A stretch of 64,000 nt of DNA from a virus. Its lineage: Duplodnaviria; Heunggongvirae; Uroviricota; Caudoviricetes. Location of the stretch: the IMG/VR virus record IMGVR_UViG_3300039208_000529, positions 48,443 through 112,442 of that record, one strand, 5' to 3'. Shown piece by piece: positions 32,392 through 60,176 of this stretch. The position numbers were made by a program, and so were the translations under genes. Within the stretch, counting starts at the first letter, position 1. Each line of letters begins with the position of its first letter. Below the pieces are notes generated by a model. That model was not told where the DNA came from and did not search any database. It saw nothing but the letters and a program-made list of their open reading frames with translations.

Positions 32392-33053
32392 TGACCGATT
32401 TTACAGAACAAGAAGTCGTCGAAATACTGAACCAGTATAGTTCTTTAGTTGATCGTATAGCAAAGAATACTTTTAAGTCGTCGCCTGCTATTGATTATGC
32501 TGATTTATGTCAGGTCGGTGAGCTTGCAGTTTTAAGGGCTGTTAAAACTTACGATCCTAGTTGTGGAGCTAATATTAAGTCATATGTATATAACGTAGTA
32601 AGACGGGATATTTACAACGAGGCTGCTAGATTTTTAGGAGTTTTTACTGTAGACCACAAAGTAACAGAGATCGCAGCGAAAGCAAATAGGTTGTTTGAAA
32701 AAGGAAAGAGTGATGCTGAAATTGCAGAAATTCTATCCAACCAGATTAAGAGCCGAAATTTTGACGAATCACATATTCGAGATATGCGAATGGCATACAC
32801 AAGACGGGCTGCTTATATAATTTCAGATGATGAGGGAGATTCCGCCGAGGAAGAATCAATAGAAGACCTTCTTTCTTCTATTCCAAGCAACAATGTTGAA
32901 AAGTTTATTCTTAACGAGAGAATTATGGGATTATTGTCAGCAGATGCTGCTTCCGAAGCTCTTGGTGTATCTCTAAATAAGATATATAAGATAGAACGTA
33001 TTTTGAAGCAACGGATTGAGCGTGCAATATCAGGGAGGACTGATGAGTTATAA
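32388..33053 (+). CDS. phage RNA polymerase sigma factor (sigma70 family)
   Basis: Region 2-like DLCQVGELAVLRAVKTYDP...KSYVY; region 4-like HTH AASEALGVSLNKIYKIE. Confidence 0.8.
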   Translation: MMTDFTEQEVVEILNQYSSLVDRIAKNTFKSSPAIDYADLCQVGELAVLRAVKTYDPSCGANIKSYVYNVVRRDIYNEAARFLGVFTVDHKVTEIAAKANRLFEKGKSDAEIAEILSNQIKSRNFDESHIRDMRMAYTRRAAYIISDDEGDSAEEESIEDLLSSIPSNNVEKFILNERIMGLLSADAASEALGVSLNKIYKIERILKQRIERAISGRTDEL

Positions 33054-34845
33054 GAAGAGAATTTTATTTGTTGGCGAAGCTAGTTTTTTGAACACTGGTT
33101 TTTCTAATATTTATAGACAGCTATTACAAAAGTTGGCAGCAACTGGGAAATATGAACTTGCTGAATTTGGTAGTTATGCTCGTCAAGATCATCCTGATGT
33201 TCAGAATTTTATTAACGGTCGCTGGAAATTTTACGGTAACATGCCAATGAATGAACAAGAGGCACAAGTTTATAACCAAATTTGTCCTCATCCTCGTGCT
33301 CGTGGAAGCAATACAAACCAGTTTGGCGAATGGAAATTTAATAGCGTTGTGGCTGATTTTAAACCTGATATTGTAGTAGACATTCGAGATTGGTGGATGC
33401 TTGAATACCAAGAAAGAAGTGTTTTTCGTCCTTGGTTTAAATGGGTTGTTATGCCAACCGTTGATGCTGAGCCTCAACAAGAAGAATGGATTCAAACCTA
33501 TGAAAATGCTAATGTAGTGTTGGCCTATTCTGATTTTGGAATTAATACCTTAAAAAGACAGTCTGCTAATGTGCTTGGTAAATCTAAAATGAAAGTATTT
33601 CCTAAGCCAATGCGTCCAGGAGTTGATCTATCTGTTTTTAAGCCGACAGATAAAAATGATGCTAGAGAGCACTTCAATTTGTCTAAAGATATACCTATTA
33701 TCGGCACAGTGATGAGAAATCAAAGTAGAAAGTTGTATCCAGATCTTATTGATGCTTTCGCTCATATGAAAAATAAATATCAAGGCAATGAGCGTGTTGA
33801 TAAAGCAGTTCTAGCGATCCATTCTGCTTGGCCAGACAATCAACATTCATATGACTATCCTCGTCATATCATGCGACTAGAATCTTACAGTTGGATGCCA
33901 TACCATAAAAAAGGTATTCGTTCAGATGTATTACAGACTATGTTATGTTGGGCGTGTAAACAAAGCCATATTACGTTTGCAATGAATTTGTGGAATAAGC
34001 CTATTGATAGCGGCAGAATAAGATTGCCGTGTCCATACTGTGGACAAAACGAAGCCTCTCCTCCAAATACTGGAGTTGGATTTTCTCGTGAGGAATTGGC
34101 TAATTTTTATAACGCTATTGATCTATATGTTCAATGTTCTATTTGTGAAGGCGATGGAATGCCTATTCAAGAGGCTAAAGCTTGTAAGGTTCCTACCTTA
34201 GTGATGGATTATACTGCTATGCGTGAAAAAGGACGCTTTCCAGCAGAATATACTCATTTAAAAGAACTGAATGTTTCCGAAAAAGACTATACATGTCATA
34301 AAGGTGGAGACATTATTGAAGTAGAGCGTTACTATATGGAGCCTGAGACTTCGTGTAAGCGTGCTCTTCCTAGTATTGAAGATTTGGCAGATAAGATGTA
34401 TCAGATGATTTCTGATCCTGTGAGGCTCGCCAAGATGGGAGAAGAGGCTCGCGAATGTGTAGAAGAAAATTATGATTGGGACAAGGTATGGAAACAATGG
34501 GAATTTGTTTTCGACAAAATTTCTGTTATTGACAGAAATGAAACTTGGGAATCTCCTGTAGAGCAAGTAGAGGAAGTTAGAGCAATAGATATTCCAGATG
34601 GAATGGATGACCAAGCTTTTATTAATTGGCTATACACACATGTTTTGAAGTATCCATGTATAGATCCTAACGGAGCTAATATGTGGCTTCAAAATCTTAA
34701 GCAGGGAGTACCACGAGAACAATTAAGAGATCATTTTGTTAAGTTAGGAAATCAGCAATCTGATGCTACGAAAGTTAGAAATCAAATTAGAGCACAGATT
34801 GATGGAGTTACTGTAGAGCTTGAAAATAAGCAGGAGTGGTTGTAA
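33043..34845 (+). CDS. GT4 (GT-B) glycosyltransferase with C-terminal DUF4214-like domain
   Basis: GTVMRNQSRK, FYNAIDLYVQCSICEGDGMPIQEAKAC; C-terminal DDQAFINWLY..VL...D..G...W...L..G..R; GGGAGG RBS before 33043. Confidence 0.85.
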   Translation: MSYKKRILFVGEASFLNTGFSNIYRQLLQKLAATGKYELAEFGSYARQDHPDVQNFINGRWKFYGNMPMNEQEAQVYNQICPHPRARGSNTNQFGEWKFNSVVADFKPDIVVDIRDWWMLEYQERSVFRPWFKWVVMPTVDAEPQQEEWIQTYENANVVLAYSDFGINTLKRQSANVLGKSKMKVFPKPMRPGVDLSVFKPTDKNDAREHFNLSKDIPIIGTVMRNQSRKLYPDLIDAFAHMKNKYQGNERVDKAVLAIHSAWPDNQHSYDYPRHIMRLESYSWMPYHKKGIRSDVLQTMLCWACKQSHITFAMNLWNKPIDSGRIRLPCPYCGQNEASPPNTGVGFSREELANFYNAIDLYVQCSICEGDGMPIQEAKACKVPTLVMDYTAMREKGRFPAEYTHLKELNVSEKDYTCHKGGDIIEVERYYMEPETSCKRALPSIEDLADKMYQMISDPVRLAKMGEEARECVEENYDWDKVWKQWEFVFDKISVIDRNETWESPVEQVEEVRAIDIPDGMDDQAFINWLYTHVLKYPCIDPNGANMWLQNLKQGVPREQLRDHFVKLGNQQSDATKVRNQIRAQIDGVTVELENKQEWL

Positions 34846-34846
34846 A

Positions 34847-35563
34847 ATGACTGAAAATACTAAAGAATGGGCAGAGAATTTGTTGAAGCAAGGTGTTGAT
34901 ATTACTTTTGTGCTTGATAGATCTGGATCTATGTCTTCTATGGCAGACGATGCAGAGGGTGGAATGAATCAGTACGTTAAAGATAGACAAGATGAACCAT
35001 TTGATACGCGATTTACTTTTATTCGCTTTGACAATGAATACGAAGTTGTTTATGATGCCGTGCCAGTGGACGAGGTTGGTGAAATCAAAGTCGAACCCCG
35101 TGGAGCTACCGCCTTATTGGATGCAGTTGGTAGAGCAATTAACGAAACTAAAACAAGAATCGGTGCTATGTCAGAAGATCAACGTCCTAAGAAAGTTTTG
35201 TTTGTGATATTGACTGATGGTTATGAAAATGCTAGCCGCGAATTTTCTAGAGATACAGTTAAAGAGATGATTAAAACTCAGACAGATGACCACAATTGGT
35301 CTTTTGTTTTCTTAGGTGCTAATCAAGATGCATTTGCAGAAGCTGGTGGATTGGGCGTTATGCGTGGTAATGCTATTAATTTCACTGGAACTGCTAGTGG
35401 AATTAGCAGTGCTCTTAGCTACACTTCTCAGCAGACTAAAACTTATTCGTGTTCGCCACAAAATGTAGCAATGAATTTCTTTGATGGCAATGAGAATGTA
35501 GACGACGTTGTTAATGTTAATGATAACGATTCATCCGAAGGATTTACTGTAACCAAATCATGA
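34847..35563 (+). CDS. von Willebrand factor A domain protein
   Basis: MIDAS FVLDRSGSMS, TALLDA, ILTDGYENAS. Confidence 0.88.
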   Translation: MTENTKEWAENLLKQGVDITFVLDRSGSMSSMADDAEGGMNQYVKDRQDEPFDTRFTFIRFDNEYEVVYDAVPVDEVGEIKVEPRGATALLDAVGRAINETKTRIGAMSEDQRPKKVLFVILTDGYENASREFSRDTVKEMIKTQTDDHNWSFVFLGANQDAFAEAGGLGVMRGNAINFTGTASGISSALSYTSQQTKTYSCSPQNVAMNFFDGNENVDDVVNVNDNDSSEGFTVTKS

Positions 35564-36783
35564 AATTACTTTTTTGCGGTCCAGTTCTAGACTTTAGTGG
35601 GTTTGCTCATTCAAGTAGAAATTTTCTGCGTTGTTTGCAGCAGGACATAGAGTTAGATGTTGTCGTCAGAGCTTTAAAATATGATAAGCTTGATAGTGGA
35701 CAAGAGTTTGTTGTAGAATCTTGGTTATCTGAAGCACTTAAAAAGGATCTACAGAACATAGATGCCTGTATTCAGATGACTACATGTAATGTTGAAGCCG
35801 TTCCTATTCCTGGAATATGTAACGGTTTATATACTTTTCTTGAAACAGATAGAGTACAGCAATCTTGGGCGGCAAAGGCTCAGTCATTTGATTTTTTGAT
35901 GGTTCCTTGTAAGGCTAATGCTCAAGCTTTAATGAGATCTGGAGTTACAAAACCAATACTTGTTTGTCCTCCCCCTTGTGACACAGATGTTTATAAAAAA
36001 GAATATTTGCCATTCCAAATTAAGGATGTTGGAGATAGAACTGTATTCTATAATATTTGTCAATTAAGTACTAAAAAAGGTATCGACGCTTTATTGCGTG
36101 CTTATTATGCTGCTTTTGCAGATTGTCCAGATGATGTGTTATTAGTATTAAAAACATATATCAACATGAATGATCGCAGCAAAGATTCAGAAATCGTAAA
36201 GGGATACATTGACAGAATGAAAGTTTCTTGTCGTATTCCTGTTCAAAAACTTCCACCAGTTTTACCTATATTAGGTACGGTGTCTGATGATGAGATTAAT
36301 AGCTTGCATGAAGCAGGGCATGCGTACGTATGTTCTTCTAGAGCAGAAGGATGGGGTATTCCTGTTTTTGATGCTTTGGCACATGGCAAGACTGTGATTT
36401 CTAATGCTTCTGGTGGACTAGAAGACTATGTTAGGAATGAATTTGCGTTGGTATATGGCGGAACGTCAACATTTTTCTTTGATGCTCCACACCAAGATCC
36501 TGGACTGTTTACTGGACTTGAGCAATGCTTTGAACCATCTCCTGTAGAAATGGCTTTTCTAATGAGGAAATTTCATTTGCTTCGTAAAGATCATTCTGGC
36601 GAAGATGCTAAAAAAGAGTGGGAAGGTATTTTAACTAGACGCGAGAATGCCTCTCAATTAGGGGACAAGTTTGATTATAGAGTTGTTTCTAGCAAAGTAA
36701 CTACTCAAGTAAAAGAAGCCTTTTCTTCCTGGAAAGAAAATGGCTGTGTGCAATTTAATGCAAACAAGGACTTGGTAGAATGA
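35560..36783 (+). CDS. GT4 glycosyltransferase
   Basis: KKGIDALLRAY, SSRAEGWGIPVFDALAHG. Confidence 0.88.
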   Translation: MKLLFCGPVLDFSGFAHSSRNFLRCLQQDIELDVVVRALKYDKLDSGQEFVVESWLSEALKKDLQNIDACIQMTTCNVEAVPIPGICNGLYTFLETDRVQQSWAAKAQSFDFLMVPCKANAQALMRSGVTKPILVCPPPCDTDVYKKEYLPFQIKDVGDRTVFYNICQLSTKKGIDALLRAYYAAFADCPDDVLLVLKTYINMNDRSKDSEIVKGYIDRMKVSCRIPVQKLPPVLPILGTVSDDEINSLHEAGHAYVCSSRAEGWGIPVFDALAHGKTVISNASGGLEDYVRNEFALVYGGTSTFFFDAPHQDPGLFTGLEQCFEPSPVEMAFLMRKFHLLRKDHSGEDAKKEWEGILTRRENASQLGDKFDYRVVSSKVTTQVKEAFSSWKENGCVQFNANKDLVE

Positions 36784-37091
36784 GCTTGACAGATTGGGCC
36801 AAAGAACTTTTAGATAAGCCTTGGATTAAATCGAGACAATATAGAGAAATAAGAATTATATTTAGAGAATTACCGGTTGAGTCTGAAATATATGACATGA
36901 CGACAAATAAAAAGATGAAGCATGTTAAAAATATATCAATAGAGGGAGCCATTGATGCATCATGTTGGATGGCAACGCTTGAATGTTTTAAGATAATGTG
37001 TGAAAACGTAGGGGGAATAGAAGGCAAAACAGAGTTTTCTGACGAGACATATTTTGAAAAAGTTCTAGTGAAAGAGTTTGTAATATCATGA
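36780..37091 (+). CDS. hypothetical protein
   Basis: 103-aa coupled ORF with N-terminal WAKELL. Confidence 0.6.
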   Translation: MSLTDWAKELLDKPWIKSRQYREIRIIFRELPVESEIYDMTTNKKMKHVKNISIEGAIDASCWMATLECFKIMCENVGGIEGKTEFSDETYFEKVLVKEFVIS

Positions 37092-38107
37092 ACCAACAAC
37101 AAATTTATTATGAGCCGCAGATGCAATCTATCGCAGAGCGAGTGAATACTCCTGTGCGATTGGTACAATGTATCCAATGCCACAATGAAGAAGAATTTAT
37201 CGGCCGAACTCTTTCTTCTATTTACAGCGTAGTAGATAGAATTATTGTTATCGAGGGAGCAGTAGAAAACCGTCCTTACTCTACAGAAGACGGTCATTCT
37301 ACTGATAGAACTTTAGAAATTATTGAAGATTTTAAAAAGAATCATGACCCAGATAATAAAGTGATGTTAATTAAAATTTCCAAGCATTGGAAGAATCTTG
37401 AAGAAATTAAGCAGACCTTTTTGGATCTTTGTTTTCCTGGCGATTGGATAATTATTAATGATGCAGATGAATTCTATCGACCTGAAGATATTCTTAGACT
37501 GAGAGCGGCCATTGAACTTAATCCGCATGCCTGTGAATTTGTTCCAAACTTTTTACATTTTTATCGTGATGTGTGGCATGTGGCTGTTCCTGGTCCAGAA
37601 TGGCAGCCACAACATCAACGTATTTTTAAATTTGTGCGAGGAATGAGGTACAATAGTCATCCTGTCGTTACTGATCCGGCCGGTCACTGTACTTATTTTT
37701 CGTCTCATTATCAGCATCGTCGTGTTATGCTTAATGATTTTTGGATCTATCACTATGGATATGCTCGTTCAAATATGGATGAGATTATGAGACGAAAACA
37801 AGAATACTATAAGGGTGAGCTTGCTAAACACGGCGAAGCTAATGTTAAGTTTGATCAGAAGGTGAAAGATTGGTTTGATGGCACTGAACTCGTACTGGAA
37901 TTCACAGGGCAACATCCTGATGCTATTAAGGGACATCACATCTTTGAAAAGCCAACCCGTGTATATGAAGCTGGTTCTAAATCATGGGTTGACGATGAGT
38001 TTTACGGAAAGGCTATTCGAGGAGAGTCATATGGTAACATCTGGCTCTGTATGACTGGACAAGCTCAGCCACCGATGTCTCATTATCATAATGGCATGAC
38101 TATTTAG
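37088..38107 (+). CDS. GT2 (GT-A) glycosyltransferase
   Basis: HNEEEFIGRTL, DGHSTDRTLEI, WIIINDADEF. Confidence 0.85.
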   Translation: MNQQQIYYEPQMQSIAERVNTPVRLVQCIQCHNEEEFIGRTLSSIYSVVDRIIVIEGAVENRPYSTEDGHSTDRTLEIIEDFKKNHDPDNKVMLIKISKHWKNLEEIKQTFLDLCFPGDWIIINDADEFYRPEDILRLRAAIELNPHACEFVPNFLHFYRDVWHVAVPGPEWQPQHQRIFKFVRGMRYNSHPVVTDPAGHCTYFSSHYQHRRVMLNDFWIYHYGYARSNMDEIMRRKQEYYKGELAKHGEANVKFDQKVKDWFDGTELVLEFTGQHPDAIKGHHIFEKPTRVYEAGSKSWVDDEFYGKAIRGESYGNIWLCMTGQAQPPMSHYHNGMTI

Positions 38108-38115
38108 GAGAAATA

Positions 38116-38586
38116 ATGAAAAATTGGTTTAAAACGACGTTTTTATATAAATGGTTTCGTATAATATATGACCCAATTTATTTTAAAAGAGTATTGGGGA
38201 AAAATTTGTTTGCAGAATCTTTTACTCCTGATAAATCTGTAGGTCATCAACACGTATGGAAACCTGTTTCTGTACAGCCATCAATAATGGGTGCTAGAGC
38301 TGTTTCTACATGTATCTGTGGAATGAAGTTGTTACATTCTCGTGAGCATTTTGAAGAATGTAAGAATCATGATTGGGAGTTTCTTAGTCGTCATTCTGAT
38401 TCACATTTTGTATGTTTCAGATGCAAAGAGTGTCATGAGACAACATTGGTTCCGTCTCATGCTATTAGTAACGAATTAAGTGCTGGTAACGACGTTACGT
38501 ATGATAGTAATCATAAAGGCGTGAAAGTGTACAGAGATAATAAATTTGTCAAAGAGATAAAATACAAAGACATTTTAGATGCCTAA
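38116..38586 (+). CDS. hypothetical Cys/His protein
   Basis: AGGAG RBS; H..W...C.CG and H.W...C.EC repeats. Confidence 0.65.
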   Translation: MKNWFKTTFLYKWFRIIYDPIYFKRVLGKNLFAESFTPDKSVGHQHVWKPVSVQPSIMGARAVSTCICGMKLLHSREHFEECKNHDWEFLSRHSDSHFVCFRCKECHETTLVPSHAISNELSAGNDVTYDSNHKGVKVYRDNKFVKEIKYKDILDA

Positions 38587-39397
38587 ACTATCTTATCTAG
38601 TTTCTACTTATGACTCTGCTCATTATCTAGACCTACATCTAGAAAATCTAATTAAAAATCAGACAGATTCGGATTTTGAGGTTATAGTAGTGAACCCAGA
38701 TTCGCCTAGTACGGATGGTTTTATTGCTAGAAAATGGGAAGATGTAGACAGCAGAATTAAGTACATTTATTGGCCACATCGTGAGCCGTATGGTGCTTCG
38801 TGGTTGCGTGCTTGGAAAAATGCAAGAGGAAAGTTTGTCGTCAATAGTAATACTGACGATTTTCATCAACCGATGTTTACTGCTAAATTTTATGAAGCTA
38901 TGAGTAGAGCTTCTGACGATGTTGGTTTTTGTTATTCTGGCCTTGTGGTAATCAACGAGAATGGTGATATTGTTGGAGGAGGGAACAAGCCACCTTTTAA
39001 TCATGAATTAATGAGTAGAGAGTGTTGGGCTGGTCCACAAGTATGCTGGAGAAACGACGAAAAGTTTAATAATAGTTTGGATTGGGACTTAATGCAAACT
39101 AGGGCCGATGAGTACCATTCTGCGTTTGATTATTGGCTTTGGTTATATTTTATGTCCAAGGGATATGATGGTGTTGTGATTCCAGAGCAGCTTACGATCT
39201 ATACACAGCGTTCTGATTCAATAGAAAACAGTAACAAATGGGCCAACAATTGGGAGACATACTCGGCTATCTCTGAGTTTTTCCCTCATAATTTCAAAAA
39301 CCATTTAAAGCATGCCAAAGAATTTATTGAATTCGATAATCGTCCTCATAGAGAAGATTGGATTGCCACAATGCAGAAAGGCAAGAAATGGAAATAA
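38579..39397 (+). CDS. GT2 glycosyltransferase
   Basis: SYLVSTYDSAHYL, FEVIVVNPDS, NSNTDD. Confidence 0.8.
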   Translation: MPKLSYLVSTYDSAHYLDLHLENLIKNQTDSDFEVIVVNPDSPSTDGFIARKWEDVDSRIKYIYWPHREPYGASWLRAWKNARGKFVVNSNTDDFHQPMFTAKFYEAMSRASDDVGFCYSGLVVINENGDIVGGGNKPPFNHELMSRECWAGPQVCWRNDEKFNNSLDWDLMQTRADEYHSAFDYWLWLYFMSKGYDGVVIPEQLTIYTQRSDSIENSNKWANNWETYSAISEFFPHNFKNHLKHAKEFIEFDNRPHREDWIATMQKGKKWK

Positions 39398-39741
39398 TTG
39401 AGAAGCCTTGGGGCCGCGAAAAGATTGTTGAACTAAATGACAAATACTGCATGAAAATCTTAGAAATTAATGCGGGCAAAAGATTGAGCTTGCAATATCA
39501 TAAGATTAAAAGAGAAACGATGTACTGTCTATATGGCATTGGTGAATTGGAAGTTTATGCTTTAGACGGTGCTCAAAAAGTTTTTTCAATGTTGCCCGGT
39601 CGATTCTTTACTATTAGTCCTGGACAGGTGCATCGTATTATTGCTGGAAAGCATTCTAATCTAGTTGTTATGGAGGCGTCCACTCCGGAAATGGACGACG
39701 TAATTAGAGTTCAAGACGATTATGGCAGAACTGAAGATTAA
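39388..39741 (+). CDS. cupin, mannose-6-phosphate isomerase type II C-terminal-like
   Basis: EKPWG...KILEINAGKRLSLQYH...RETMY...PGQVHRI...EASTPE.DDVIRVQDDYGR. Confidence 0.85.
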   Translation: MEIIEKPWGREKIVELNDKYCMKILEINAGKRLSLQYHKIKRETMYCLYGIGELEVYALDGAQKVFSMLPGRFFTISPGQVHRIIAGKHSNLVVMEASTPEMDDVIRVQDDYGRTED

Positions 39742-39949
39742 TAAAGATACAAAACGTTGGGCTTTTGATCTGTTAGTTAGCACTGATCCGCAGATTAAAG
39801 AACTGCGTGATGCATTGATTACTGAGATGGCATACAATATGTATCTTGAACATAATTTAAAGCCTGGAACAATTCCGTTCAACAAGCTGAAAACAGAAGA
39901 GAGACGTGAATATTTTCAACGAGTTGAGGAACTAATATATAATGACTAA
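39722..39949 (+). CDS. hypothetical protein
   Basis: 75-aa coupled ORF with N-terminal WAFDLL. Confidence 0.55.
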   Translation: MAELKINKDTKRWAFDLLVSTDPQIKELRDALITEMAYNMYLEHNLKPGTIPFNKLKTEERREYFQRVEELIYND

Positions 39950-41190: not shown

Positions 41191-41524
41191 AGAACTTAAG
41201 TATATAATGCGAGATTTTGACCTTGCTGCTGTGAGGCTTGATGTTTCTACTTCTGTTGAATCGTTTGATCTTTGTACAGTAGGTAGTAGAGCAACTAAAA
41301 CATTCCAAGGAAAGCGGACATTTAATTTTTCTGTTAGTTTTCTTCGCCCTCGTACTGAATGGAAAAATATTGAAGCTGGTAAGGAATCAGAGGAAAATCT
41401 TCAGGTTTTTTTTGGTTTAATAAAAGAACTTGGGTTTTATATTCACTCTAGAACTGAAGAGTATCATACTGACGGAACAATTGTAGTAAATATAGATGGG
41501 GAGATTATAGGTGTCAAAAATTAA
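41171..41524 (+). CDS. hypothetical protein
   Basis: 117-aa coupled ORF. Confidence 0.55.
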   Translation: MMLTQTEELKYIMRDFDLAAVRLDVSTSVESFDLCTVGSRATKTFQGKRTFNFSVSFLRPRTEWKNIEAGKESEENLQVFFGLIKELGFYIHSRTEEYHTDGTIVVNIDGEIIGVKN

Positions 41525-48370: not shown

Positions 48371-48372
48371 AG

Positions 48373-51695: not shown

Positions 51696-52671
51696 TTATT
51701 TAGCTCATAGGCGAGATCTTACTTATCAGAAGCTGTCGTTTCAATTTTTGAAACGAATGCATCAGTCTACTAAGGATAAAATAAGAATAAGTTTACTTGT
51801 TAATGATTACAGTGGAGTAGCACGCTGGGAAAGCTTGTCTAAAGATCTTGAGCAGTCTGGTATAGAAACGTTTATCGCGTACTTTCCAGAAGAAGATAAT
51901 TATAGAAGGAAAATTAGATGGGCAACATCTCAGAATTTTGAGTATTCCATAAAGATGGACGAGGATTGTTTTATGAATCAATATATGTGGGAGTTTATGA
52001 TTAATCATGCTTTTGCATTAGACGATCCTCAAAATTTAATGATTAGTCCAGTGTTGTCTAACGGAATTCCTAGTTGTGAGTTTTTTATTCACGACATTTT
52101 AACTGAAGCAGAACAGTCTGGTATGTACAAGAGTTTTCAACAGCATAAATTTGCTGAAGTTTGGAATATGGATTATTCTATTCTTAATGAATGTACTGTC
52201 GACTGTTATGAGCCATGGACGACGAACAGATGGTTTGAAACACTTGACAAAATTGATACCCCTCTTAAGGGAATTCATCCGATTAGGTTTTCTCCCAACG
52301 CTCATTTTATTTTGAATCTTTATGTATTGGCACACATACGAGAGTTTCTAGAAAATCATAACTTTTACTTTCATGGCTTTAAATCTCCATATACTTGCAA
52401 TAGTATATTTTTAGCTAAAACCAAGTTGTGGCACGACACATTTCATGACAAATCGTTGTGTGATCGTGCAGCTAAACAGCTTGGAACTTGGGCATATGCG
52501 TTTGATGAAATTCAATTGAACGAATATAGACATTTGAATGATATGAATGTATTATTCATTAGAGGAGGATTTGGGATTCATTCGATGTTTAATACTCTTT
52601 ATAAATTTGATAGTCGTGCTCGCGATTATGAAAATAATTTTGTGCAGCAATTGGCTTTATCATGTCCATAG
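51673..52671 (+). CDS. putative GT-A-like protein
   Basis: YSIKMDEDCFM DxD-like motif; island context. Confidence 0.5.
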   Translation: MNKQININYLAHRRDLTYQKLSFQFLKRMHQSTKDKIRISLLVNDYSGVARWESLSKDLEQSGIETFIAYFPEEDNYRRKIRWATSQNFEYSIKMDEDCFMNQYMWEFMINHAFALDDPQNLMISPVLSNGIPSCEFFIHDILTEAEQSGMYKSFQQHKFAEVWNMDYSILNECTVDCYEPWTTNRWFETLDKIDTPLKGIHPIRFSPNAHFILNLYVLAHIREFLENHNFYFHGFKSPYTCNSIFLAKTKLWHDTFHDKSLCDRAAKQLGTWAYAFDEIQLNEYRHLNDMNVLFIRGGFGIHSMFNTLYKFDSRARDYENNFVQQLALSCP

Positions 52672-53528
52672 CAGTTATTGTAGTTGCTGGCGGCGAACGT
52701 CAGAATGTATGTGTTTGGCCGACATATTACAATTGTGATGCTGGAGTAGATCATGACTTGATAGTTGTGCATCGTAACATGCAGCATGTTCCTAGTGTCT
52801 TTAATGTGCGAGGCAATGTCATTTACGAAAATAAATGTTTTCCAGACGGAGAGCTTCCTCACAAAGCTTTTGGTGCATATCGTCACTATTGCGAGAAATA
52901 CATTAATGACTACGAATATTTTGCTTTTGTTTCTGATGATGTCTTTTTCAAGAGAGATAATTGGCTACTACAAGCATGTGAAATGTTAGATAAATATGAC
53001 AAGTTGGGTCTTGTCGCAACCCAAATTTTTAACGGTAATTGTGGCCAGTATCCACATCCAAGTCATGCTAGAGCACCTATTTGGTTTAGTAAGTCATCAG
53101 CTCTCAAGAAAATACGTTGGGAATTTGACTCTGATCATGATGGAGAGATGAGAATAGCCTATCAGTTTTTAGTTGCTGGATATTTTAGTGCTCAGATAGG
53201 ACATAAAATTGATTTTGCTTATGATGCAGATCAAAAAGATCATATTGCGGTTTTGTGGGAACGTGACAAATACGGATGTAATAAAGATAAATACTCTACT
53301 GAAGAAATAGAACAATTAGATGCTTTTCTTACAGTTAGACTTTTAGAAAATGACGTATCGGACCTTGACATTCATTCTCCTTTTAGTCATATTGGTACTA
53401 GAAACGTCATTCGAGATTTACAGCCTTTCGATGGCTTGCTTTATGATAACAGCGTAGGTCTGGCAGTAAATTATACTAGGGTAGAGCGTCATAATTTTGG
53501 AACATATATTTTATCGTCATGGACTTAG
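52662..53528 (+). CDS. putative GT-A-like protein
   Basis: YFAFVSDDVFF...WL; island context. Confidence 0.5.
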   Translation: MSIAVIVVAGGERQNVCVWPTYYNCDAGVDHDLIVVHRNMQHVPSVFNVRGNVIYENKCFPDGELPHKAFGAYRHYCEKYINDYEYFAFVSDDVFFKRDNWLLQACEMLDKYDKLGLVATQIFNGNCGQYPHPSHARAPIWFSKSSALKKIRWEFDSDHDGEMRIAYQFLVAGYFSAQIGHKIDFAYDADQKDHIAVLWERDKYGCNKDKYSTEEIEQLDAFLTVRLLENDVSDLDIHSPFSHIGTRNVIRDLQPFDGLLYDNSVGLAVNYTRVERHNFGTYILSSWT

Positions 53529-54211
53529 AAACATTATTATATAAAGAGTTGCCGCCAACGTTTACTGATTTTGCCGGAAATCAGCGAGCTTTTCATGAGG
53601 CATTTGTTCGTAATGCAGAGCTTGGTACTCCAATTAAGGATGTTTTAGAGCTTGGTGTTTGTCGTATCAATCGAGACTTTATGAGTCCAGATGTTTATGG
53701 TCAATCCACAAAAACGTTGAATGTACTATGTGAATTTTTTAATTCTACTGAACTAATTTCTATCGACATTGACGAAAAAGCTCGCGAGACAGTAGAGCAT
53801 TGTAAGAAATGGTTGAAAGACCGAGGTTGGGGCTTTAGAGAACATAATTTTATATGCTCTAACAGTATTGAATTTGATGTAAAATTTCACTTGCCAGATG
53901 GTGTAGACTTTATTTTCTTAGATACCAATCACGATGATAATTATCCTGAGCGTTTAGGCATCAAAGGCGAAACAGGCGGAGCCGGAATGACATACAAAGA
54001 GATTTGTTATTATGCTCCACACTTGACAGAAAATGGCCGTTTGTTTATGCACGATACGATGCATTTTTATCATCCTAAAGCTTATGGTGTAAATACTGAA
54101 GGTGCAGTAAGACGTTTCTTGGATGAGAATCCTGGCTTTAAGTTTAGAGAACATGGCTTGAATCAACATGGTTTGGGAGAAATTGTTAGGAAGGATTCTA
54201 AAGTATGGTAG
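53519..54211 (+). CDS. class I SAM methyltransferase (Methyltransf_24-like)
   Basis: VLELGV, LISIDID, DFIFLDTNH, LFMHDT. Confidence 0.8.
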   Translation: MDLETLLYKELPPTFTDFAGNQRAFHEAFVRNAELGTPIKDVLELGVCRINRDFMSPDVYGQSTKTLNVLCEFFNSTELISIDIDEKARETVEHCKKWLKDRGWGFREHNFICSNSIEFDVKFHLPDGVDFIFLDTNHDDNYPERLGIKGETGGAGMTYKEICYYAPHLTENGRLFMHDTMHFYHPKAYGVNTEGAVRRFLDENPGFKFREHGLNQHGLGEIVRKDSKVW

Positions 54212-54354
54212 ATTTTTTTAGAAAATTAATGTGTAGAATTGGGTGGCATACTCCTAAACAAAGTTCAACAGAAGTTGCTGGGATTAATATAAAATCTATT
54301 TGTTCCAGATGCAATAGAAGTATTATGTTAGATTCTCAAGGAAACTGGTTCTAA
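54205..54354 (+). CDS. 49-aa Cys/His protein not in the ORF track
   Basis: MVDFFRKLMCRIGWHTP...CSRCNR...GNWF*; fills the gap exactly; AGGA upstream. Confidence 0.6.
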   Translation: MVDFFRKLMCRIGWHTPKQSSTEVAGINIKSICSRCNRSIMLDSQGNWF

Positions 54355-54356
54355 AA

Positions 54357-55067
54357 ATGAAAGCTTTGATACCGATGGCAGGTGAAGGTAGCCGTTTCGT
54401 AGCGGCGGGCTATACTTTTCCCAAGCCTCTTATCGATGTTAACGGCAAGCCCATGATACAGGTCGTTGTCGATACTCTTCCTGTTTGTAGTGAATACATA
54501 TTTCTATGCAGAAAAGAACACATAGAAAAATATCAATTAGAAGATATGCTTCAAAGTATTACTGGCGGTTGTTCTAAAGTTGTTGTCGTGGATAAACTTA
54601 CTGAAGGTGCTGCATGTACAGCCTTGTTGGCAGAACATCACATTGACAACAATGAGCCTCTTTTAATTGCTAACTCGGATCAATATGTAGAGTTTGATCA
54701 CAGAAACTTCAACATTCTACGTCGTCATGCAAATCTCGATGGCATTGTATTTACGTTTAATGCTTCACATCCCAAATGGAGTTTTGTCGATGTAGATTCT
54801 AAAACCTTGCAAGTTACTAGAGTTGTTGAAAAACAACCTATTTCTAATATTGCTACATGCGGTATTTACTATTGGAGCAAAGGAAGTGATTTCTGTCGTT
54901 ATGCTCATCAAATGATCAAAGCTAATAGACGTGTTAATGGAGAATTTTATATTGCCCCTGTTTATCAAGAGGCACTGCAAACAGCAAGATTTATGCTTGT
55001 GCCGTTTTTTGTTAATAAAATGTCCGGACTTGGAACCCCTGAAGACCTTGAGAATTTTTTAAGATAA
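54357..55067 (+). CDS. BcbE-like sugar-phosphate nucleotidyltransferase (GT2_BcE-like)
   Basis: IPMAGEGSRF...PKPLIDV.GKPMI, EGAACT, ANSDQ, ATCGIYYW, NGEFYIAPVY, GLGTPEDL. Confidence 0.85.
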   Translation: MKALIPMAGEGSRFVAAGYTFPKPLIDVNGKPMIQVVVDTLPVCSEYIFLCRKEHIEKYQLEDMLQSITGGCSKVVVVDKLTEGAACTALLAEHHIDNNEPLLIANSDQYVEFDHRNFNILRRHANLDGIVFTFNASHPKWSFVDVDSKTLQVTRVVEKQPISNIATCGIYYWSKGSDFCRYAHQMIKANRRVNGEFYIAPVYQEALQTARFMLVPFFVNKMSGLGTPEDLENFLR

Positions 55068-55612
55068 TGCTTTTAGTATCAAATAATTTGTTTCGTAGAG
55101 AGATTACTTATCCGCCCAATGCTGTTGTGCGTATCAATTTAGCTTGGGCACATACGCCAGAACTTTTGGCTAAAGCAGTGGACACTGATCACGATGTGTT
55201 TTTGGATTTCCCAATCGGTAGGTCTAAGCCTCCATACAACAACTATTCATTAAAAGATGTTTATGACTTTGTTCAGCAATACGATAACATCAAATATGTT
55301 GCAATTTCAAATGTTCATCATAAAGGATACTTAGCTGATGCTATTGAGGTTTTTGGTGATAGTGTTATTCTTGTTCCAAAGATTGAAAGTTTGGAGGGTA
55401 TTAAGAATATTCATGATATTATCGCAGCATTGCCTACTGAACGTAAGGTATTAATGTTGGATCATGACGATTTATGTGCAGATCTTATTAAAAATGGTAT
55501 TCCTCCTAATGACATGTATACTGTACATGTTGCCAACCTTATCGAAGCCTGCAACAATGATGGTGCAGAACTTCTCAGAACACAAGGGGTTGTTTTTAAC
55601 TCACAATGGTAA
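55067..55612 (+). CDS. pyruvate kinase/HpcH aldolase-like barrel protein (short)
   Basis: VVRINLAW, FLDFP, PKIESLEGIKNIHDII, LMLDHDDL. Confidence 0.65.
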   Translation: MLLVSNNLFRREITYPPNAVVRINLAWAHTPELLAKAVDTDHDVFLDFPIGRSKPPYNNYSLKDVYDFVQQYDNIKYVAISNVHHKGYLADAIEVFGDSVILVPKIESLEGIKNIHDIIAALPTERKVLMLDHDDLCADLIKNGIPPNDMYTVHVANLIEACNNDGAELLRTQGVVFNSQW

Positions 55613-56556
55613 AGCTTCCAACCGTTCTTGCGTCCTCTGTAATTAGATCTACTCATCGTGGAGACAGTCATGGTGGCATATATAAGATTAATTTAGAAAC
55701 ATCTGAAATCAATCAGTTGCTTGATTGGAATAATCCAGATATTAATTGGGAGGGCCGAGGAGGAGATCGTGGGATTCGCGGCCTCGCCTTTTTTGGCAAT
55801 CTGTTATATGCTGTAGCAGGAAATGAATTGTTTGCATTTAAGTTAGGAGATGATGGCAAGCTTGTTAAGGTTGCGTCCTACACTACTCCATACATGAAAT
55901 TAACGCATGAAGCATGGCGTCACAGAGATAAACTGTATATTTGCTCTGGTGGAGCAGATTGCATACTTATATTTGATCTTGTGCAAAAAGATTGGACGTA
56001 TAGCTGGTATCATAACAAGGAATCTCATCCTGAAACTCTTTGGTTTAATCCTAAAAATATGGAAGAGCCTTACGCCAATCCTACAGAAGGCTTCATGCAT
56101 CTTGACAGCGTATATGCTAATGATGATAACATGTGGTATTCAGGAGCATACACTGATAGTTTGTGGGTGAAGGATCTTAGAGTTAATGGAGTTACTGGAC
56201 GTATCAAGCTCGTGTATGACGATACGCACAATGCTCGACCCTGGAAAGGTGGTTATTTATATAATCTTTCTAGACATAGTAAAACGGTGTGGGAAAAAAA
56301 TGGCAAGATTCAAGACGAGTGGCATACTCCTCACCGCCCTCTTGAAGAACTTACATATACTCATTTGCCACGCGATCATGCTGTTCAAGGATATACTCGT
56401 GGTATGGTTACTTATGGAGAATATGTAATTGTTGGTACTTCTCCTGCCGCAATAAATGTCTTTAAGATCGGTCAGTTTAATCCTATAAAAACTGTTCATC
56501 TTACTAATGATATTAGAAACTCAATTTGTGGAATGGTTCTAAATGAGTGGGAATAA
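55606..56556 (+). CDS. beta-propeller protein (TIGR03032/DUF4915-like)
   Basis: Repeated blades (RGLAFFGNLLYAV, THEAWRHRDKLYIC, HLDSVYA, YTRGMVTYGEYVIVGTS). Confidence 0.55.
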   Translation: MVKLPTVLASSVIRSTHRGDSHGGIYKINLETSEINQLLDWNNPDINWEGRGGDRGIRGLAFFGNLLYAVAGNELFAFKLGDDGKLVKVASYTTPYMKLTHEAWRHRDKLYICSGGADCILIFDLVQKDWTYSWYHNKESHPETLWFNPKNMEEPYANPTEGFMHLDSVYANDDNMWYSGAYTDSLWVKDLRVNGVTGRIKLVYDDTHNARPWKGGYLYNLSRHSKTVWEKNGKIQDEWHTPHRPLEELTYTHLPRDHAVQGYTRGMVTYGEYVIVGTSPAAINVFKIGQFNPIKTVHLTNDIRNSICGMVLNEWE

Positions 56557-57028
56557 CTATATTATGATTGCCCATAGAGGCAATATAAATGGTCCAAACC
56601 CTGAGCGAGAGAACGCTCCTGATTATATTCAGGAAGCACTTGATGCCGGATATGATGTTGAAGTTGATCTTTGGCATGTTGATGGAAAATGGTTTCTAGG
56701 ACATGACGAACCAAAATATGAAATTGATCCAAGATTTTTAGTTAATGAAAACCTATGGATTCATTGCAAGAATACGGCAGCGTTAGACGAAATTCAAATG
56801 ATGATGAATGTCCTAAGTAGATTACGTAAACCAAACTATTTTTGGCACGAAGAAGATGAGCGTACATTAACTAGTCAGGGTTTGATTTGGACTTATCCAG
56901 GAAAAGAATTGGCCCATCTCTCTATTGCTGTATTGCCTGAGCGATTTCCAGATTGGGACATCAGTAAAGCTATAGGATTTTGCAGCGATTATATAGCTAC
57001 AATTATCGATAGATTGGATGATGAATGA
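56543..57028 (+). CDS. PI-PLC/GDPD-like phosphodiesterase family protein
   Basis: IAHRGN.NG...EN.PDYI..AL..GYDVEVDLW, LGHDEP, WIHCKN. Confidence 0.75.
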   Translation: MSGNNYIMIAHRGNINGPNPERENAPDYIQEALDAGYDVEVDLWHVDGKWFLGHDEPKYEIDPRFLVNENLWIHCKNTAALDEIQMMMNVLSRLRKPNYFWHEEDERTLTSQGLIWTYPGKELAHLSIAVLPERFPDWDISKAIGFCSDYIATIIDRLDDE

Positions 57029-58056
57029 AAGTTTTAATCACTGGTGCTAATGGTTTTGTTGGACGACATGTGGTACGTGAGCTTGAGAATAATCACGAGC
57101 TTTTGATACCTGATTCTAGTGAATTAAATCTGCTTCCTGTTATCTCAGCAAGTGGCGTCCATACCAATAATGGGTGGTGTTTACCGCAATGGCCCGATGG
57201 TATTCATGATACATATAGATACCTTTTGACAAAAGGTGTAGATGCTGTTATCCATCTTGCAGCAACTTGTGGTGGTATTGGTATCAATGCAGATAATCCT
57301 GGTCGATTTATATACGAGAATCTTCAAATGGGAATCAATGTGCTTGAGGCAGCCCGTTTAGCAGAAGTACGGAAGGTGGTATTACTTGGTTCTGTATGTT
57401 CCTATCCTAAGTTTGCGAGAATACCTTTCCATGAAGAAGATATGTGGGACGGTTACCCCGAAGAAACTAACGCTCCATATGGTATAGCTAAAAAAACTAT
57501 TATGGAGATGGGTGCCGCGTACTCGCGGCAATATAAAATGAACGTAACTAATCTTGTGCCCGTAAACATGGTTGGAGAATATGACAATTTTGATGAATAT
57601 AGCAGTCATGTTATTCCTGCCCTGATTAAGAAGTTTGAGTTGCCGCAATACCGTGACTGGTATCGCGGCAATCTTGAAGAAGATGGTGATTTTGGTCTTC
57701 GTGGTCAATTGAAAGATCCATATGTTGAGTTATGGGGTACCGGTTCTGCTTCGCGAGAGTTTTTATACGCTGGCGATTGTGCTAGAGCAATTGGAATTGC
57801 TTTGGAAAAGCATACTGGGCCCGATCCTATTAATCTGGGAACAGGAAAAGAAATTACCATTAAAGATTTGGCTATTCTTATCAAACATCTTGGTGGTTAT
57901 GATGCGGAAATTTTGTGGGATGAAAGCAGGCCAGATGGTCAGCCGCGTAGATGTTTAGATACTACTCGTGCCAAGCATATTTTACGTTGGGAAGCAACAA
58001 CTTCCATCGAGAGAGCCATTTGTAAAACGATTGATTGGTATCGAGAGAATAAATGA
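57025..58056 (+). CDS. fcl: GDP-L-fucose synthase (epimerase/reductase)
   Basis: ITGANGFVG, HLAA.CGGIGIN...PG.FIYENL, GSVCSYP, YGIAK, SHVIPALIKKF, WGTGSASREFL. Confidence 0.9.
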   Translation: MKVLITGANGFVGRHVVRELENNHELLIPDSSELNLLPVISASGVHTNNGWCLPQWPDGIHDTYRYLLTKGVDAVIHLAATCGGIGINADNPGRFIYENLQMGINVLEAARLAEVRKVVLLGSVCSYPKFARIPFHEEDMWDGYPEETNAPYGIAKKTIMEMGAAYSRQYKMNVTNLVPVNMVGEYDNFDEYSSHVIPALIKKFELPQYRDWYRGNLEEDGDFGLRGQLKDPYVELWGTGSASREFLYAGDCARAIGIALEKHTGPDPINLGTGKEITIKDLAILIKHLGGYDAEILWDESRPDGQPRRCLDTTRAKHILRWEATTSIERAICKTIDWYRENK

Positions 58057-58553
58057 ATAGACAGTATGAGACTCATATTCCGGTGCTCGAATTTATAATG
58101 GATAATTTTGATATTCAAAGTGTCTTAGAGCTTGGAATGGGAAGATCCAGTACAAATTTCTTTAAAAAGTTTACTGATATCTCTATAGTGAGTGTCGATT
58201 CTAGTCAAACCTATGCAAAAATATTAGAGTCAACAGAAAATCATAAGGTAGTTGTTAGCCCTCTTTTGCAGTATGTTATGCAACGTGAAGATCAATATGA
58301 TCTAGCTTTCGTTGATGGGAATCCTGCAAACGAAAGGTGGCTATGCGTGAAAGAATTATTTAATAAGGCGGGAATTATTGTGGCACATGACACAGCTCCA
58401 AAAGACGATTGGAACTACCACTATTCTAAGATAGAACTACCCGAAAATTTTGTTAGAATAGATTATAAGAAGGATTATCCTTGGACTTCAGTATATACAG
58501 CAAGAGATGATGCTAAAGAAAAAATTTTAAGATTTTGTATGGATACGATGTAG
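58053..58553 (+). CDS. putative SAM methyltransferase-like protein
   Basis: VLELGMG.SST, DLAFVDG, IVAHDT. Confidence 0.65.
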   Translation: MNRQYETHIPVLEFIMDNFDIQSVLELGMGRSSTNFFKKFTDISIVSVDSSQTYAKILESTENHKVVVSPLLQYVMQREDQYDLAFVDGNPANERWLCVKELFNKAGIIVAHDTAPKDDWNYHYSKIELPENFVRIDYKKDYPWTSVYTARDDAKEKILRFCMDTM

Positions 58554-58563
58554 GATCAATAGA

Positions 58564-58716: not shown

Positions 58717-58717
58717 T

Positions 58718-59104
58718 ATGTGTGACCTTAGAAATATTGTGGCAATTAGATTGGATGACGGCACGATTGAACGCTATGATAGCGGTGTACCTGCTGCATA
58801 TTTCAGTGCCGAATTTGCCAAAGAGCAAAATGAGCTATCTGTTTCCGAAGTAACTAAACCTGGATTATACCGATGTAGTGCTGCTCCATGCTGTGGAGCT
58901 GGCTTCAGATATTTTGATGGGTCCTCTTGGATTGAAGAAGGCAGCGGCTGGAAAGTTAAAGAATTACTTATCGAAGAGAGTGCTTGCAATACAGCTTTCC
59001 AGATGATGATACATCACGGTTTAAAATGTGAACACGTTGAGATAGATGACTATAGTCAATTGCCTGAAAAATATACTATTAGAGTGGTGATGAAGGATGA
59101 ATAA
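58718..59104 (+). CDS. hypothetical protein
   Basis: Strong GGAGGAGGG RBS; 128 aa. Confidence 0.65.
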   Translation: MCDLRNIVAIRLDDGTIERYDSGVPAAYFSAEFAKEQNELSVSEVTKPGLYRCSAAPCCGAGFRYFDGSSWIEEGSGWKVKELLIEESACNTAFQMMIHHGLKCEHVEIDDYSQLPEKYTIRVVMKDE

Positions 59105-60176
59105 AACAGCTTTGATTAGTGGCGTTAGTGGCCAAGACGGTTATTATCTGTCTAAATATCTATTGGATTTGGGATATCGTGTCGTTGGTATAGTTCGAAG
59201 AACGTCCACACCAAATGATACTCGTCTTAGAACTCTAAAAGGCACGCCGAACTTCGTTCTTGTAGACGGCGACATTACTGATATTTCTTCTATTCAAAGA
59301 CTGGTTAAAACATTTCAACCAGACGAGTTTTACCATCTTGCGGCCCAATCTCATGTAGCCTTGTCCTGGGAATATCCCATTCAAACCGCTGAGACTACTG
59401 GAATTGGTGTTTTGAATTGCCTTGAAGCTTTGAAACAAGAGAAACCAGACTGTCGTTTCTATTTTGCTGGTAGTAGCGAACAGTTTGGTAACAGTATACA
59501 AGGCAAGTTTAAAGTATTTGTTCCTGGCTTAGGATACAAAGGATTGGGAGTAAGGCGAGAACCAGGAGAAGTGCTTTTGAATGAAGATTCTTTAATGAAT
59601 CCTGAGTCTCCTTATGCTGCCGCTAAAGTGTTTGGATATAATATTACGCAAGTTTATAGACGTTCATATGACATGTTTGCAAGCTGTGGAATATTGTTCA
59701 ATCATGAGTCTCCCTTGCGGGGAGAAAACTTTGTTACTAGAAAGATAACAAGTCAACTTGCTCGTGTCAAATGGGGGCTGCAAGAATATGTCGAATTGGG
59801 TAATTTAAACTCTTATCGCGACTGGGGTTTTGCGGGTGATTATGTTCGTGCAATGCATGCCATGTTGCAGCACGACGAACCAGATGATTTTGTTATTGCT
59901 ACTGGAGAAACATATTCGGTGCAAGAGTTTGTAAGCCGTGCCTGTAATTATTTTCAGCTTGATCCTCATAAAGTAATTAAAATTAATCCTAAATTTATTC
60001 GACCAAAAGATGTAGATGTATTAATAGGAAACTCAGAAAAAGCTAGACAAATTCTCAATTGGACGCCAAAATATACTTTTGAGGAGCTTGTACAAATGAT
60101 GTGCAAGTATGACGATCATAGACAGTCTACGGATCCTCAAATGGTTCGTATGGCTGATGAGTATTTGGGAGGATAG
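59097..60176 (+). CDS. gmd: GDP-mannose 4,6-dehydratase
   Basis: ISGVSGQDG.YL, LAAQSHV, SPYAAAK, GILFNHESPLRGENFVTRKIT, GNL...RDWG. Confidence 0.96.
   Translation: MNKTALISGVSGQDGYYLSKYLLDLGYRVVGIVRRTSTPNDTRLRTLKGTPNFVLVDGDITDISSIQRLVKTFQPDEFYHLAAQSHVALSWEYPIQTAETTGIGVLNCLEALKQEKPDCRFYFAGSSEQFGNSIQGKFKVFVPGLGYKGLGVRREPGEVLLNEDSLMNPESPYAAAKVFGYNITQVYRRSYDMFASCGILFNHESPLRGENFVTRKITSQLARVKWGLQEYVELGNLNSYRDWGFAGDYVRAMHAMLQHDEPDDFVIATGETYSVQEFVSRACNYFQLDPHKVIKINPKFIRPKDVDVLIGNSEKARQILNWTPKYTFEELVQMMCKYDDHRQSTDPQMVRMADEYLGG

Follow-up and report, generated by a model that had tools for sequence, protein, structure and literature searches.

A lineage-conserved glycosyltransferase module beside the DNA polymerase gene of uncultured aquatic phages and its enlargement into a 27-kb glycan biosynthesis island

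A 64,000-nucleotide window of phage DNA, bases 48443-112442 of the 177,556-bp viral contig IMGVR_UViG_3300039208_000529, carries at 33043-60176 a densely packed glycan biosynthesis island of ~27 kb, all on the plus strand, which is led by a glycosyltransferase (GT) gene designated GT-609. Coordinates are window positions unless marked "genome". Judged from gene order and homology, the island is an enlarged form of an 8-10-kb module lying between the genes for a DnaE-type polymerase and a helix-turn-helix (HTH) protein in a lineage of large, uncultured, aquatic phages with genomes of ~160-183 kb. It is well supported that the soluble enzymes of the locus build a complex glycan that is methylated and contains deoxyhexose. 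As for the acceptor of this glycan, we tentatively favour one made by the phage itself, most likely virion proteins.

The framework of the module is formed by the following features.

28907-32188, plus strand: DnaE-type DNA polymerase III alpha (Pfam PF07733/PF17657/PF02811), the conserved anchor upstream of the module
32388-33053, plus strand: sigma-70 region-2 protein (PF04542, 4.9e-9), directly 5' of the island
33043-34845, plus strand: GT-609, predicted GT4 enzyme of GT-B fold with a Cys-rich insertion and a DUF4214-like tail (PF00534, 2.6e-10)
35560-36783, plus strand: GT-407, the second conserved GT4 and partner of GT-609 (PF00534, 6.4e-11)
57025-58056, plus strand: GDP-L-fucose synthase-like short-chain dehydrogenase/reductase (SDR), Fcl/GMER-like (NF047922, 2e-70; PDB 1bws, 3.6e-51)
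59097-60176, plus strand: predicted GDP-mannose 4,6-dehydratase, Gmd (PF16363, 9.2e-108; TIGR01472), the conserved 3' end of the island

A DnaE match was located upstream of GT-609 in nearly all of 80 related loci, and GT-407 adjoins GT-609 in 70 of them (44 of 47 in the set used for clustering of open reading frames, ORFs). The conservation of GT-609 at least equals that of the neighbouring polymerase: distant relatives share 35-37% identity in GT-609, as compared with 30-32% in the best DnaE segment. When the ORFs downstream of GT-609 were clustered in 46 loci and identified by hhalign and PDB profiles, a recurrent order was observed. It runs from GT-609 and GT-407 through a third GT4 (hhalign 97.8%) and a small ORF to a GT2-like gene (67.6%), at times followed by a GT2 of the 47714 type, and then to a LicC-like nucleotidyltransferase (PDB 1jyk, 7.4e-11). 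Further on come a CgeB-like GT (98.4%, or of the 48528 type), another GT2-like gene (83.9%) and often SDRs of the Gmd/Fcl cluster, and the order closes with an HTH gene and a small gene, as it does after the island in the window. It is because this order matches the framework of the island that we read the latter as an expanded copy of the module.

The comparison with complete relatives showed where the expansion lies. G001 (161 kb, with direct terminal repeats, DTR) contains a syntenic island of 18.5 kb at 38-75% identity from which ~9 kb of the window genes are absent, namely the VWA gene, the cupin, MazG, two methyltransferases and the entire 50380-57028 block. In the more distant G002 (complete, 177 kb, DTR), GT-609 and GT-407 stand at the start, and a nucleotidyltransferase, a HAD protein, a cupin and Gmd at the end. 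The interior of the G002 island is different, with four SDRs, an adenosine 5'-phosphosulfate (APS) kinase, a TylF methyltransferase and one or more sugar dehydrogenases; glutamine synthetase domains, a trypsin-like peptidase and a DUF2061 protein are encoded there as well (L008, L092). Gmd is encoded in all five complete relatives, and the sigma-70 region-2 gene is kept in L002 and G001. Surface-polysaccharide loci under diversifying selection show this arrangement of conserved ends around a variable interior. Gene clusters that combine Gmd, Fcl and many GTs are already known from phages, and the kind itself is not new; what is new here is a lineage-core GT module of fixed order, led by an intein-targeted GT4 beside the polymerase, with cassette-like expansion. 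Identity with the moraphage lineage, for which four core GT orthogroups have been described, was considered too, but the moraphage genomes exceed 200 kb (PMC12619734).

The source contig, from an aquatic metagenome, is linear, has 40% GC and is 89% complete by CheckV. A search for matching sequencing runs gave two DNA runs, both of one aquatic-metagenome study that is the likely source, and no RNA run. Because GC content and GC skew are uniform along the block and the island is syntenic in the two complete DTR genomes, it is not a chimera. A search of the 177.6-kb contig for a tyrosine integrase gave no match, and DTR occur in three of the five complete relatives; the genome looks virulent-type. 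Nothing was retrieved when the island was compared by megablast with 50,697 phage records. A protein search of the phage collection with GT-609 gave no orthologue but only six weak GT matches at 20-30% identity, which included three cyanophages and a Tetrasphaera phage, and no cultured relative was found in that collection.

GT-609 is the leading enzyme of the island. Its AlphaFold2 model (pLDDT 86.8) has a two-Rossmann GT-B fold, and Foldseek returned at least 500 GT-B matches. The top match, chlorovirus B736L (3oy2, E 2.4e-19), is the best one by sequence profile too, with an identity of ~15%. Moreover, E369 and E377 of the E-x7-E motif are invariant in 38 orthologues. The model and these residues mark GT-609 as a predicted retaining GT-B glycosyltransferase of GT4 type. 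According to a review, GDP-mannose is the best ligand of B736L (PMC4691112). The fold matches that follow B736L are GlgM, MshA, sucrose-phosphate synthase, BshA and a methylmannose-polysaccharide mannosyltransferase; the lipid-acceptor enzymes PimB' and PglA are also among the neighbours. A complex prediction for GT-609 (residues 1-510) with GT-407 scored 0.00, which speaks neither for nor against binding. For the start of the gene, the orthologues favour 33043 (MSYKKRIL) over 33016.

Homologues of GT-609 number 142 in IMG/VR and 1,881 at E <= 1e-10 in a large protein database, many of them on metagenomic phage contigs of 160-183 kb. The family was found on phage-like contigs only, including ~150-kb contigs binned into metagenome-assembled genomes (MAGs), which look like whole phage genomes that were mis-binned. 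The MAG labels of these contigs (L094-L107, several of ~150 kb) include Hydrogenophaga, SAR202, Verrucomicrobiales, Flavobacteriales, Omnitrophota and Thermoplasmatales, among others. Some orthologues (P0016, P0051, P0052, P0059, P0103 and P0113) are ~950-980 amino acids long and contain intein/LAGLIDADG domains; in P0016, an insert of ~375 amino acids interrupts the invariant VMRNQ-SRKL motif. Inteins typically occupy conserved positions of indispensable proteins. Our literature search found no description of an intein in a glycosyltransferase.

The remaining genes of the island are as follows.

34820-35563, plus strand: VWA-domain protein (PF00092, 1.8e-5; phrog_7371, 4.8e-58), not found in L002 or G001
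37088-38107, plus strand: GT2 (PF00535, 3.5e-9)
38579-39397, plus strand: GT2 (PF00535, 6.7e-15), separated from the preceding GT2 by a small ORF
39358-39741, plus strand: cupin of the phosphomannose isomerase (PMI) C-terminal type (PF01050, 4.5e-8; C-terminal part of TIGR01479)
39942-40994, plus strand: GT4 (PF00534, 4.2e-7)
41511-42638, plus strand: GT4 (PF00534, 3e-12)
42948-43316, plus strand: small HAD-like phosphatase (phrog_1238, 3.7e-15; weak PF18143)
43707-44420, plus strand: GT-A-like "hexosyltransferase" candidate of a viral family (Atlas neighbours; no Pfam match)
44417-44740, plus strand: MazG-like pyrophosphatase (PF03819, 9.4e-5)
44737-45804, plus strand: IMPDH/GMP-reductase-like enzyme without CBS domain (PF00478, 1e-95; IMPDH and GMPR both fit)
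46178-47062, plus strand: first CgeB-like GT (PF13524, 9.4e-17)
47055-47717, plus strand: S-adenosylmethionine (SAM) methyltransferase, Methyltransf_24 (PF13578, 1.9e-14)
47714-48370, plus strand: GT2 common to the wider lineage (cluster 14, 12 loci; PF00535, 8e-23)
48528-49550, plus strand: second CgeB-like GT, common to the wider lineage (cluster 13, 14 loci; PF13524, 2.8e-28)
49736-50383, plus strand: SAM methyltransferase, Methyltransf_11 (PF08241, 4.2e-18)
50380-57028, plus strand: window-specific insertion, absent from G001, which holds the next seven entries
50380 (start), plus strand: GT2-like candidate, no Pfam match
51075-51695, plus strand: HAD protein, beta-phosphoglucomutase (beta-PGM)-like
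51673 and 52662 (starts), plus strand: GT-A-like candidates, no Pfam match
53519-54211, plus strand: weak methyltransferase, below the Pfam cut-off
54357-55067, plus strand: sugar-1-phosphate nucleotidyltransferase (NTP_transferase)
55067 and 56543 (starts), plus strand: two ORFs without assigned function
55606-56556, plus strand: beta-propeller
58053-58553, plus strand: weak Methyltransf_24-like protein (PF13578, 2.8e-5; 25.4 bits, cut-off 26.3)

An earlier note, made from the letters of the window, had listed much of this inventory, and most of it was borne out. The four GT4 genes (33043-34845, 35560-36783, 39942-40994, 41511-42638) have Glycos_transf_1 support, and Pfam likewise backs the three GT2 genes (37088-38107, 38579-39397, 47714-48370), the two CgeB-like genes (PF13524 at 46178-47062 and 48528-49550), the PMI-like cupin and the nucleotidyltransferase. 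The four GT-A-like genes of that list stay as leads only, as none has a Pfam match; for these candidates (43707, 50380, 51673 and 52662), fold or feature neighbours in the Atlas or source names point to GT2/GT8-like enzymes, and the 43707 candidate falls among viral clusters with GT8/GT2-fused neighbours at TM 0.8-0.9. The island total therefore ranges from 9 to 13 GTs, with nine Pfam-supported and four weaker ones. Two of the four SAM methyltransferases proposed (47055 and 49736) are solid, but the other two (53519 and 58053) lie below the Pfam cut-off. Similarly, one of the HADs (51075-51695) holds, and the other (42948-43316) is a weak HAD-like protein. Four genes come in addition to the earlier list, namely the VWA gene (34820-35563), MazG (44417-44740), the IMPDH/GMP-reductase-like gene (44737-45804) and the beta-propeller gene (55606-56556).

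The GT4 genes at 39942-40994 and 41511-42638 are paralogues (shared BLAST cluster 17), and the GT2 pair at 37088-39397 has 54-75% identity in L002 and G001. The MazG-like protein and the IMPDH/GMP-reductase-like enzyme (44417-45804) sit mid-island among the glycan genes. The latter enzyme is 67% identical in G001 and might either replenish or deplete the GTP from which GDP-sugars are made. The model of the beta-propeller is confident (pLDDT 90.9) with generic fold matches only. No Pfam model matches this protein, which has 115 homologues in phages and MAGs, and the invariance of certain His, Asp, Arg and Asn residues points to an enzyme. PHROGs was of little use for most of the unknown island ORFs. 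A helix motif, W-A-x-[ED/RK]-L-L, was observed at the N- or C-terminus of five small ORFs (36780-37091, 39722-39949, 42635-42973, 43313-43714 and genome 148981-149220), as compared with 1.1 expected by shuffling, and four of the five are interspersed among the GT genes. No homologue of the ORFs at 36780, 42635 and 43313 was found in the related loci at an ORF cut-off of 80 amino acids, below which the ORF at 39722 (75 amino acids) fell.

The nucleotide-sugar branch was examined through its two SDR-type genes. For the 59097 protein, gmd is the best NCBIfam match (TIGR01472, 342.7 bits), which is below the equivalog cut-off of 415. In the alignment with PDB 1rpn (4.9e-91), "SSE" and "YaaaK" pair with "TSE" and "YgvaK"; the catalytic Ser/Thr-Glu and YxxxK residues are kept, and an insertion of ~22 amino acids is present. 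We regard this protein as a divergent Gmd member of predicted activity. The best PDB match of the 57025 protein is E. coli GDP-fucose synthetase (1bws, 3.6e-51), and its NF047922 score of 237.7 bits is below the equivalog cut-off of 500. Here "GSVCSYP", "PYGIAK" and "SSHVIP" match "GSSCIYP", "PYAIAK" and "NSHVIP", and the equivalents of S107, C109, Y136, K140 and H179 are kept. In E. coli GMER, they make up the Ser107-Tyr136-Lys140 triad and the acid-base pair Cys109/His179. The pair of gmd and fcl named earlier is thus present, in the form of divergent members that keep their catalytic residues and score below the equivalog cut-offs, and the joint product would be GDP-L-fucose or another GDP-6-deoxyhexose. 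The core proposal of a phage-encoded, membrane-free pathway to a methylated deoxyhexose glycan holds.

The pathway had also been described as all-soluble, with no flippase, Wzy polymerase, exporter or lipid-carrier enzyme, and transmembrane and family searches of the contig found none. Hydropathy peaks stay below 1.6 in every island ORF, and no ORF with at least three transmembrane segments was found on the whole contig. Bac_transf and Glycos_transf_4, which cover both phosphoglycosyl-transferase superfamilies, had no match on the contig with positive controls, nor did Wzy_C (Wzy/ligase type) on the full 177.6 kb, again with a positive control. The contig thereby differs from a serotype-converting prophage, as no polytopic membrane ORF, Wzy_C or integrase was found on it. 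The earlier step from missing membrane genes to a glycan built in the cytoplasm on phage proteins survives in part: the pathway is indeed membrane-free, but the argument is weaker than stated because the GT4 and GT2 enzymes of O-antigen and capsule synthesis are themselves soluble or peripheral. Since such GTs are soluble and cyanophage clusters have been read as host-surface modifiers, the phage could borrow the host lipid carrier and exporters.

Our preference for a phage-made acceptor has three grounds. The initiating GTs persist in the same order among phages whose divergence is wide enough for them to have different hosts, the GT-609 family occurs on phage-like contigs only, and the genome looks virulent, as no integrase was found. 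A conservation of these GTs that is not below that of DnaE, the inteins in some copies and the varying island interior lend further support. In the proposed scheme, Gmd and the Fcl-like enzyme would supply the phage's own GDP-L-fucose or a related GDP-6-deoxyhexose, and the PMI-type cupin, the beta-PGM-type HAD and the sugar-1-phosphate nucleotidyltransferase would be plausible feeder steps from fructose-6-phosphate. The GT-609/GT-407 pair would then start a conserved core oligosaccharide on a conserved phage-made acceptor, and assembly would proceed in the cytoplasm with no lipid carrier involved. The variable genes would attach methyl groups and fucose-type sugars and, in some relatives, sulfate as well. 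The acceptor would be one or more virion surface proteins, with an outer glycan part that varies between strains like a serotype. A bolder and more doubtful extension is that the whole abundant, uncultured 160-183-kb aquatic lineage glycosylates its own virions autonomously by a conserved GT core and a swappable cassette for fucose-type sugars, methyl and sulfate groups, an O-antigen-like "viral serotype" system in which the intein-targeted GT4 pair and about five conserved GTs may lay the common core.

Several observations weigh against virion proteins as the acceptor. No acceptor was identified, and neither the major capsid protein nor any other head or tail protein has a Ser/Thr-rich terminal extension of the kind seen in the glycosylated subunits of mycobacteriophages. 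The conserved GT pair adjoins replication genes rather than structural ones, a position that is uninformative on late expression, and no promoter or terminator signal above chance was found that separates the island from its neighbours. MAG binning identified no host, as the GT-609 contigs fall in at least ten unrelated phyla. As the contig is 89% complete, a gene not found could sit in the unseen 11%. Finally, soluble GT4 and GT2 enzymes also act on undecaprenyl-linked intermediates of the host, which leaves room for remodelling of the host surface.

The tail region has two features of its own. SG dipeptides are enriched in the tail-like proteins (window 5953-21707, genome 118793-121204), with 108 SG against 40 GS and 47 expected, as compared with 228 SG, 182 GS and 204 expected in the rest of the proteome; V, I or L comes next in 57% of the dipeptides. 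At the sequence level the enrichment is genuine, and it could reflect either a glycosylation sequon or a beta-structure motif. Moreover, three ORFs that lie outside the island are inserted between tail genes, namely a sulfotransferase, an ORF without assigned function and an FkbM methyltransferase. None of the five complete relatives has the sulfotransferase, and no APS kinase was found in the present genome.

The strongest rival to a phage-made acceptor is remodelling of the host envelope, which we consider unlikely though well worth keeping in mind. On the cytoplasmic side of the membrane, the GTs would modify lipid-linked intermediates of host lipopolysaccharide (LPS), capsule, S-layer glycan or teichoic acid, would rely on initiating transferases, flippases and ligases of the host, and would thereby alter the surface of the infected cell; the gains would be a block of superinfection, evasion of grazers or aid in release. 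Missing transmembrane and Wzy genes are compatible with this, since O-antigen GT4 and GT2 enzymes are soluble or peripheral, and the lipid-acceptor enzymes PimB' and PglA, fold neighbours of GT-609, count in its favour. The closest known clusters, those of cyanophages S-SCSM1 and S-SCSM2R, have likewise been interpreted in this way (PMC9602691, PMC12801897). However, the leading GTs and their order are kept across phages whose DnaE is only ~30% identical, although host glycans differ strongly, and the restriction of the GT-609 family to phage-like contigs is not like a recent borrowing from a host locus. Classical lysogenic serotype conversion does not apply, as no integrase was found.

Considerably less probable is a free cytoplasmic product, a soluble methylated oligo- or polysaccharide or glycoside, unattached to virions, which would alter host physiology in the manner of mycobacterial polymethylated polysaccharides or compatible solutes. 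Next to B736L, GT-609 finds its best fold matches in GT4 enzymes that use small soluble acceptors, several methyltransferases lie among the GTs, and carrier or export genes were not found on the contig; but fold rank within GT4 does not predict the acceptor, and conserved ends with a variable interior fit exposed, selected glycans rather than an internal metabolite. We know of no benefit of a free cytoplasmic glycan for a phage. DNA, the second acceptor offered by the earlier note, deserves hardly any credence: the GT pair directly follows DnaE in nearly all relatives, the glucosyltransferases of T4, in which, as in related phages, glycosylation of modified bases evades restriction, are GT-B enzymes, and a MazG-like pyrophosphatase and a purine enzyme lie within the island whose other genes would extend the sugar, but a ThyA-type dCMP/dUMP hydroxymethylase was not found (Thymidylat_synt search, positive control), an ordinary ThyX is present, and 9-13 GTs with Gmd/Fcl and O-methyltransferases go well beyond what any DNA glycan known so far would need. 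A Tet_JBP search gave no match, and its control was silent.

The other features of the window, whose genes are on the plus strand throughout, are given below.

822-5948, plus strand: tape-measure protein at the window start, 5' of the tail-like genes
5953-21707, plus strand: large tail-like proteins
7455-9156, plus strand: the sulfotransferase (PF03567, phrog_3347), the ORF without assigned function and the FkbM methyltransferase (PF05050, 6.9e-19)
22625-32188, plus strand: RecA, DnaB, exonuclease, ClpP and the DnaE-type polymerase, between the tail-like genes and the sigma gene

Genes for terminase, portal and capsid precede the window, and the capsid protein (genome 40018-41058) shows a weak similarity to its counterpart in Bacillus phage G. 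Scans for sigma-70 promoters and terminators over 21-61 kb stayed at chance level, a k-mer search of intergenic regions gave no recurrent motif, and an Rfam search of the window found no family. The stretch 60177-60830 after Gmd is not a regulatory gap, as it is covered by an ORF (60109-60852) whose probable start is 60179, preceded by GGAGG, and whose product is highly charged and rich in K and E.

Reports of phage clusters with many GTs and a GDP-fucose pathway go back some twenty years, and such clusters routinely receive the unproven label "host cell-wall modification". The present locus shows such a GT toolkit as a lineage-core trait, with fixed order, conserved ends, some intein copies and a variable interior, and GT-609 and GT-407 together with candidate virion proteins offer a concrete, testable handle on what such clusters glycosylate. 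If virion proteins are indeed the acceptor, glycan coats would be general in a major group of aquatic phages, with a bearing on adsorption, grazing, particle stability and the lectin-based sorting of environmental viruses.

Among known systems, the LPS or cell-wall clusters of cyanomyoviruses (P-SSM2, S-SCSM1, S-SCSM2R) share with the island Gmd and GDP-fucose synthase, a mannose-6-phosphate isomerase-type gene and many GTs, belong to large lytic aquatic phages as well, and have NDP-sugar epimerases besides. S-SCSM1 encodes Gmd, Fcl, fucosyltransferases, further GTs and MPI (PMC9602691), and S-SCSM2R 13 GTs (PMC12801897); both sets were read by their authors as modifying the cell wall. Unlike the T4-like cyanophages, this phage has a DnaE-type polymerase, a tape-measure protein and a TerL nearest to those of Bacillus phages (27% identity), and no psbA was found on the contig (no Photo_RC match); unlike those of the cyanomyovirus clusters, the leading GTs of the island are lineage-core and stand in fixed order beside the polymerase. 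Temperate serotype-conversion cassettes (Gtr, Oac, Wzy) depend on lysogeny and on membrane proteins, and T4 DNA glucosylation needs a hydroxymethylase, none of which was found here. In the spore crust of Bacillus subtilis, soluble CgeB-type and other GTs with NDP-sugar enzymes (CgeB, Sps enzymes) decorate a cytoplasmic protein shell without lipid carrier or flippase; the island, with its two CgeB-like genes, shares the domain family alone with this cellular developmental system.

In mycobacteriophages, according to a summary of Freeman et al. 2023, phage-encoded soluble GTs glycosylate virion proteins in the cytoplasm to form a glycan shield (PMC12619734); the capsid and tail-tube subunits bear the glycans at their C-termini. 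Those phages have few such genes, a cluster F1 mycobacteriophage for instance two putative GTs (PMC11256854), as compared with 9-13 GTs and nucleotide-sugar synthesis here, and the capsid protein of the present phage has no comparable C-terminal tail. The chloroviruses (PBCV-1/NY-2A), like the island, combine a virus-encoded GDP-fucose pathway with soluble GTs; the glycan core of PBCV-1 contains L-fucose, and its putative GT A064R carries an O-methyltransferase-like domain (PMC4691112). They are eukaryotic viruses, and the attachment of the glycan to the capsid protein is shown there and proposed here. If the doubtful lineage-wide extension should hold, the present phages might represent a prokaryotic counterpart of chlorovirus and mimivirus glycosylation.

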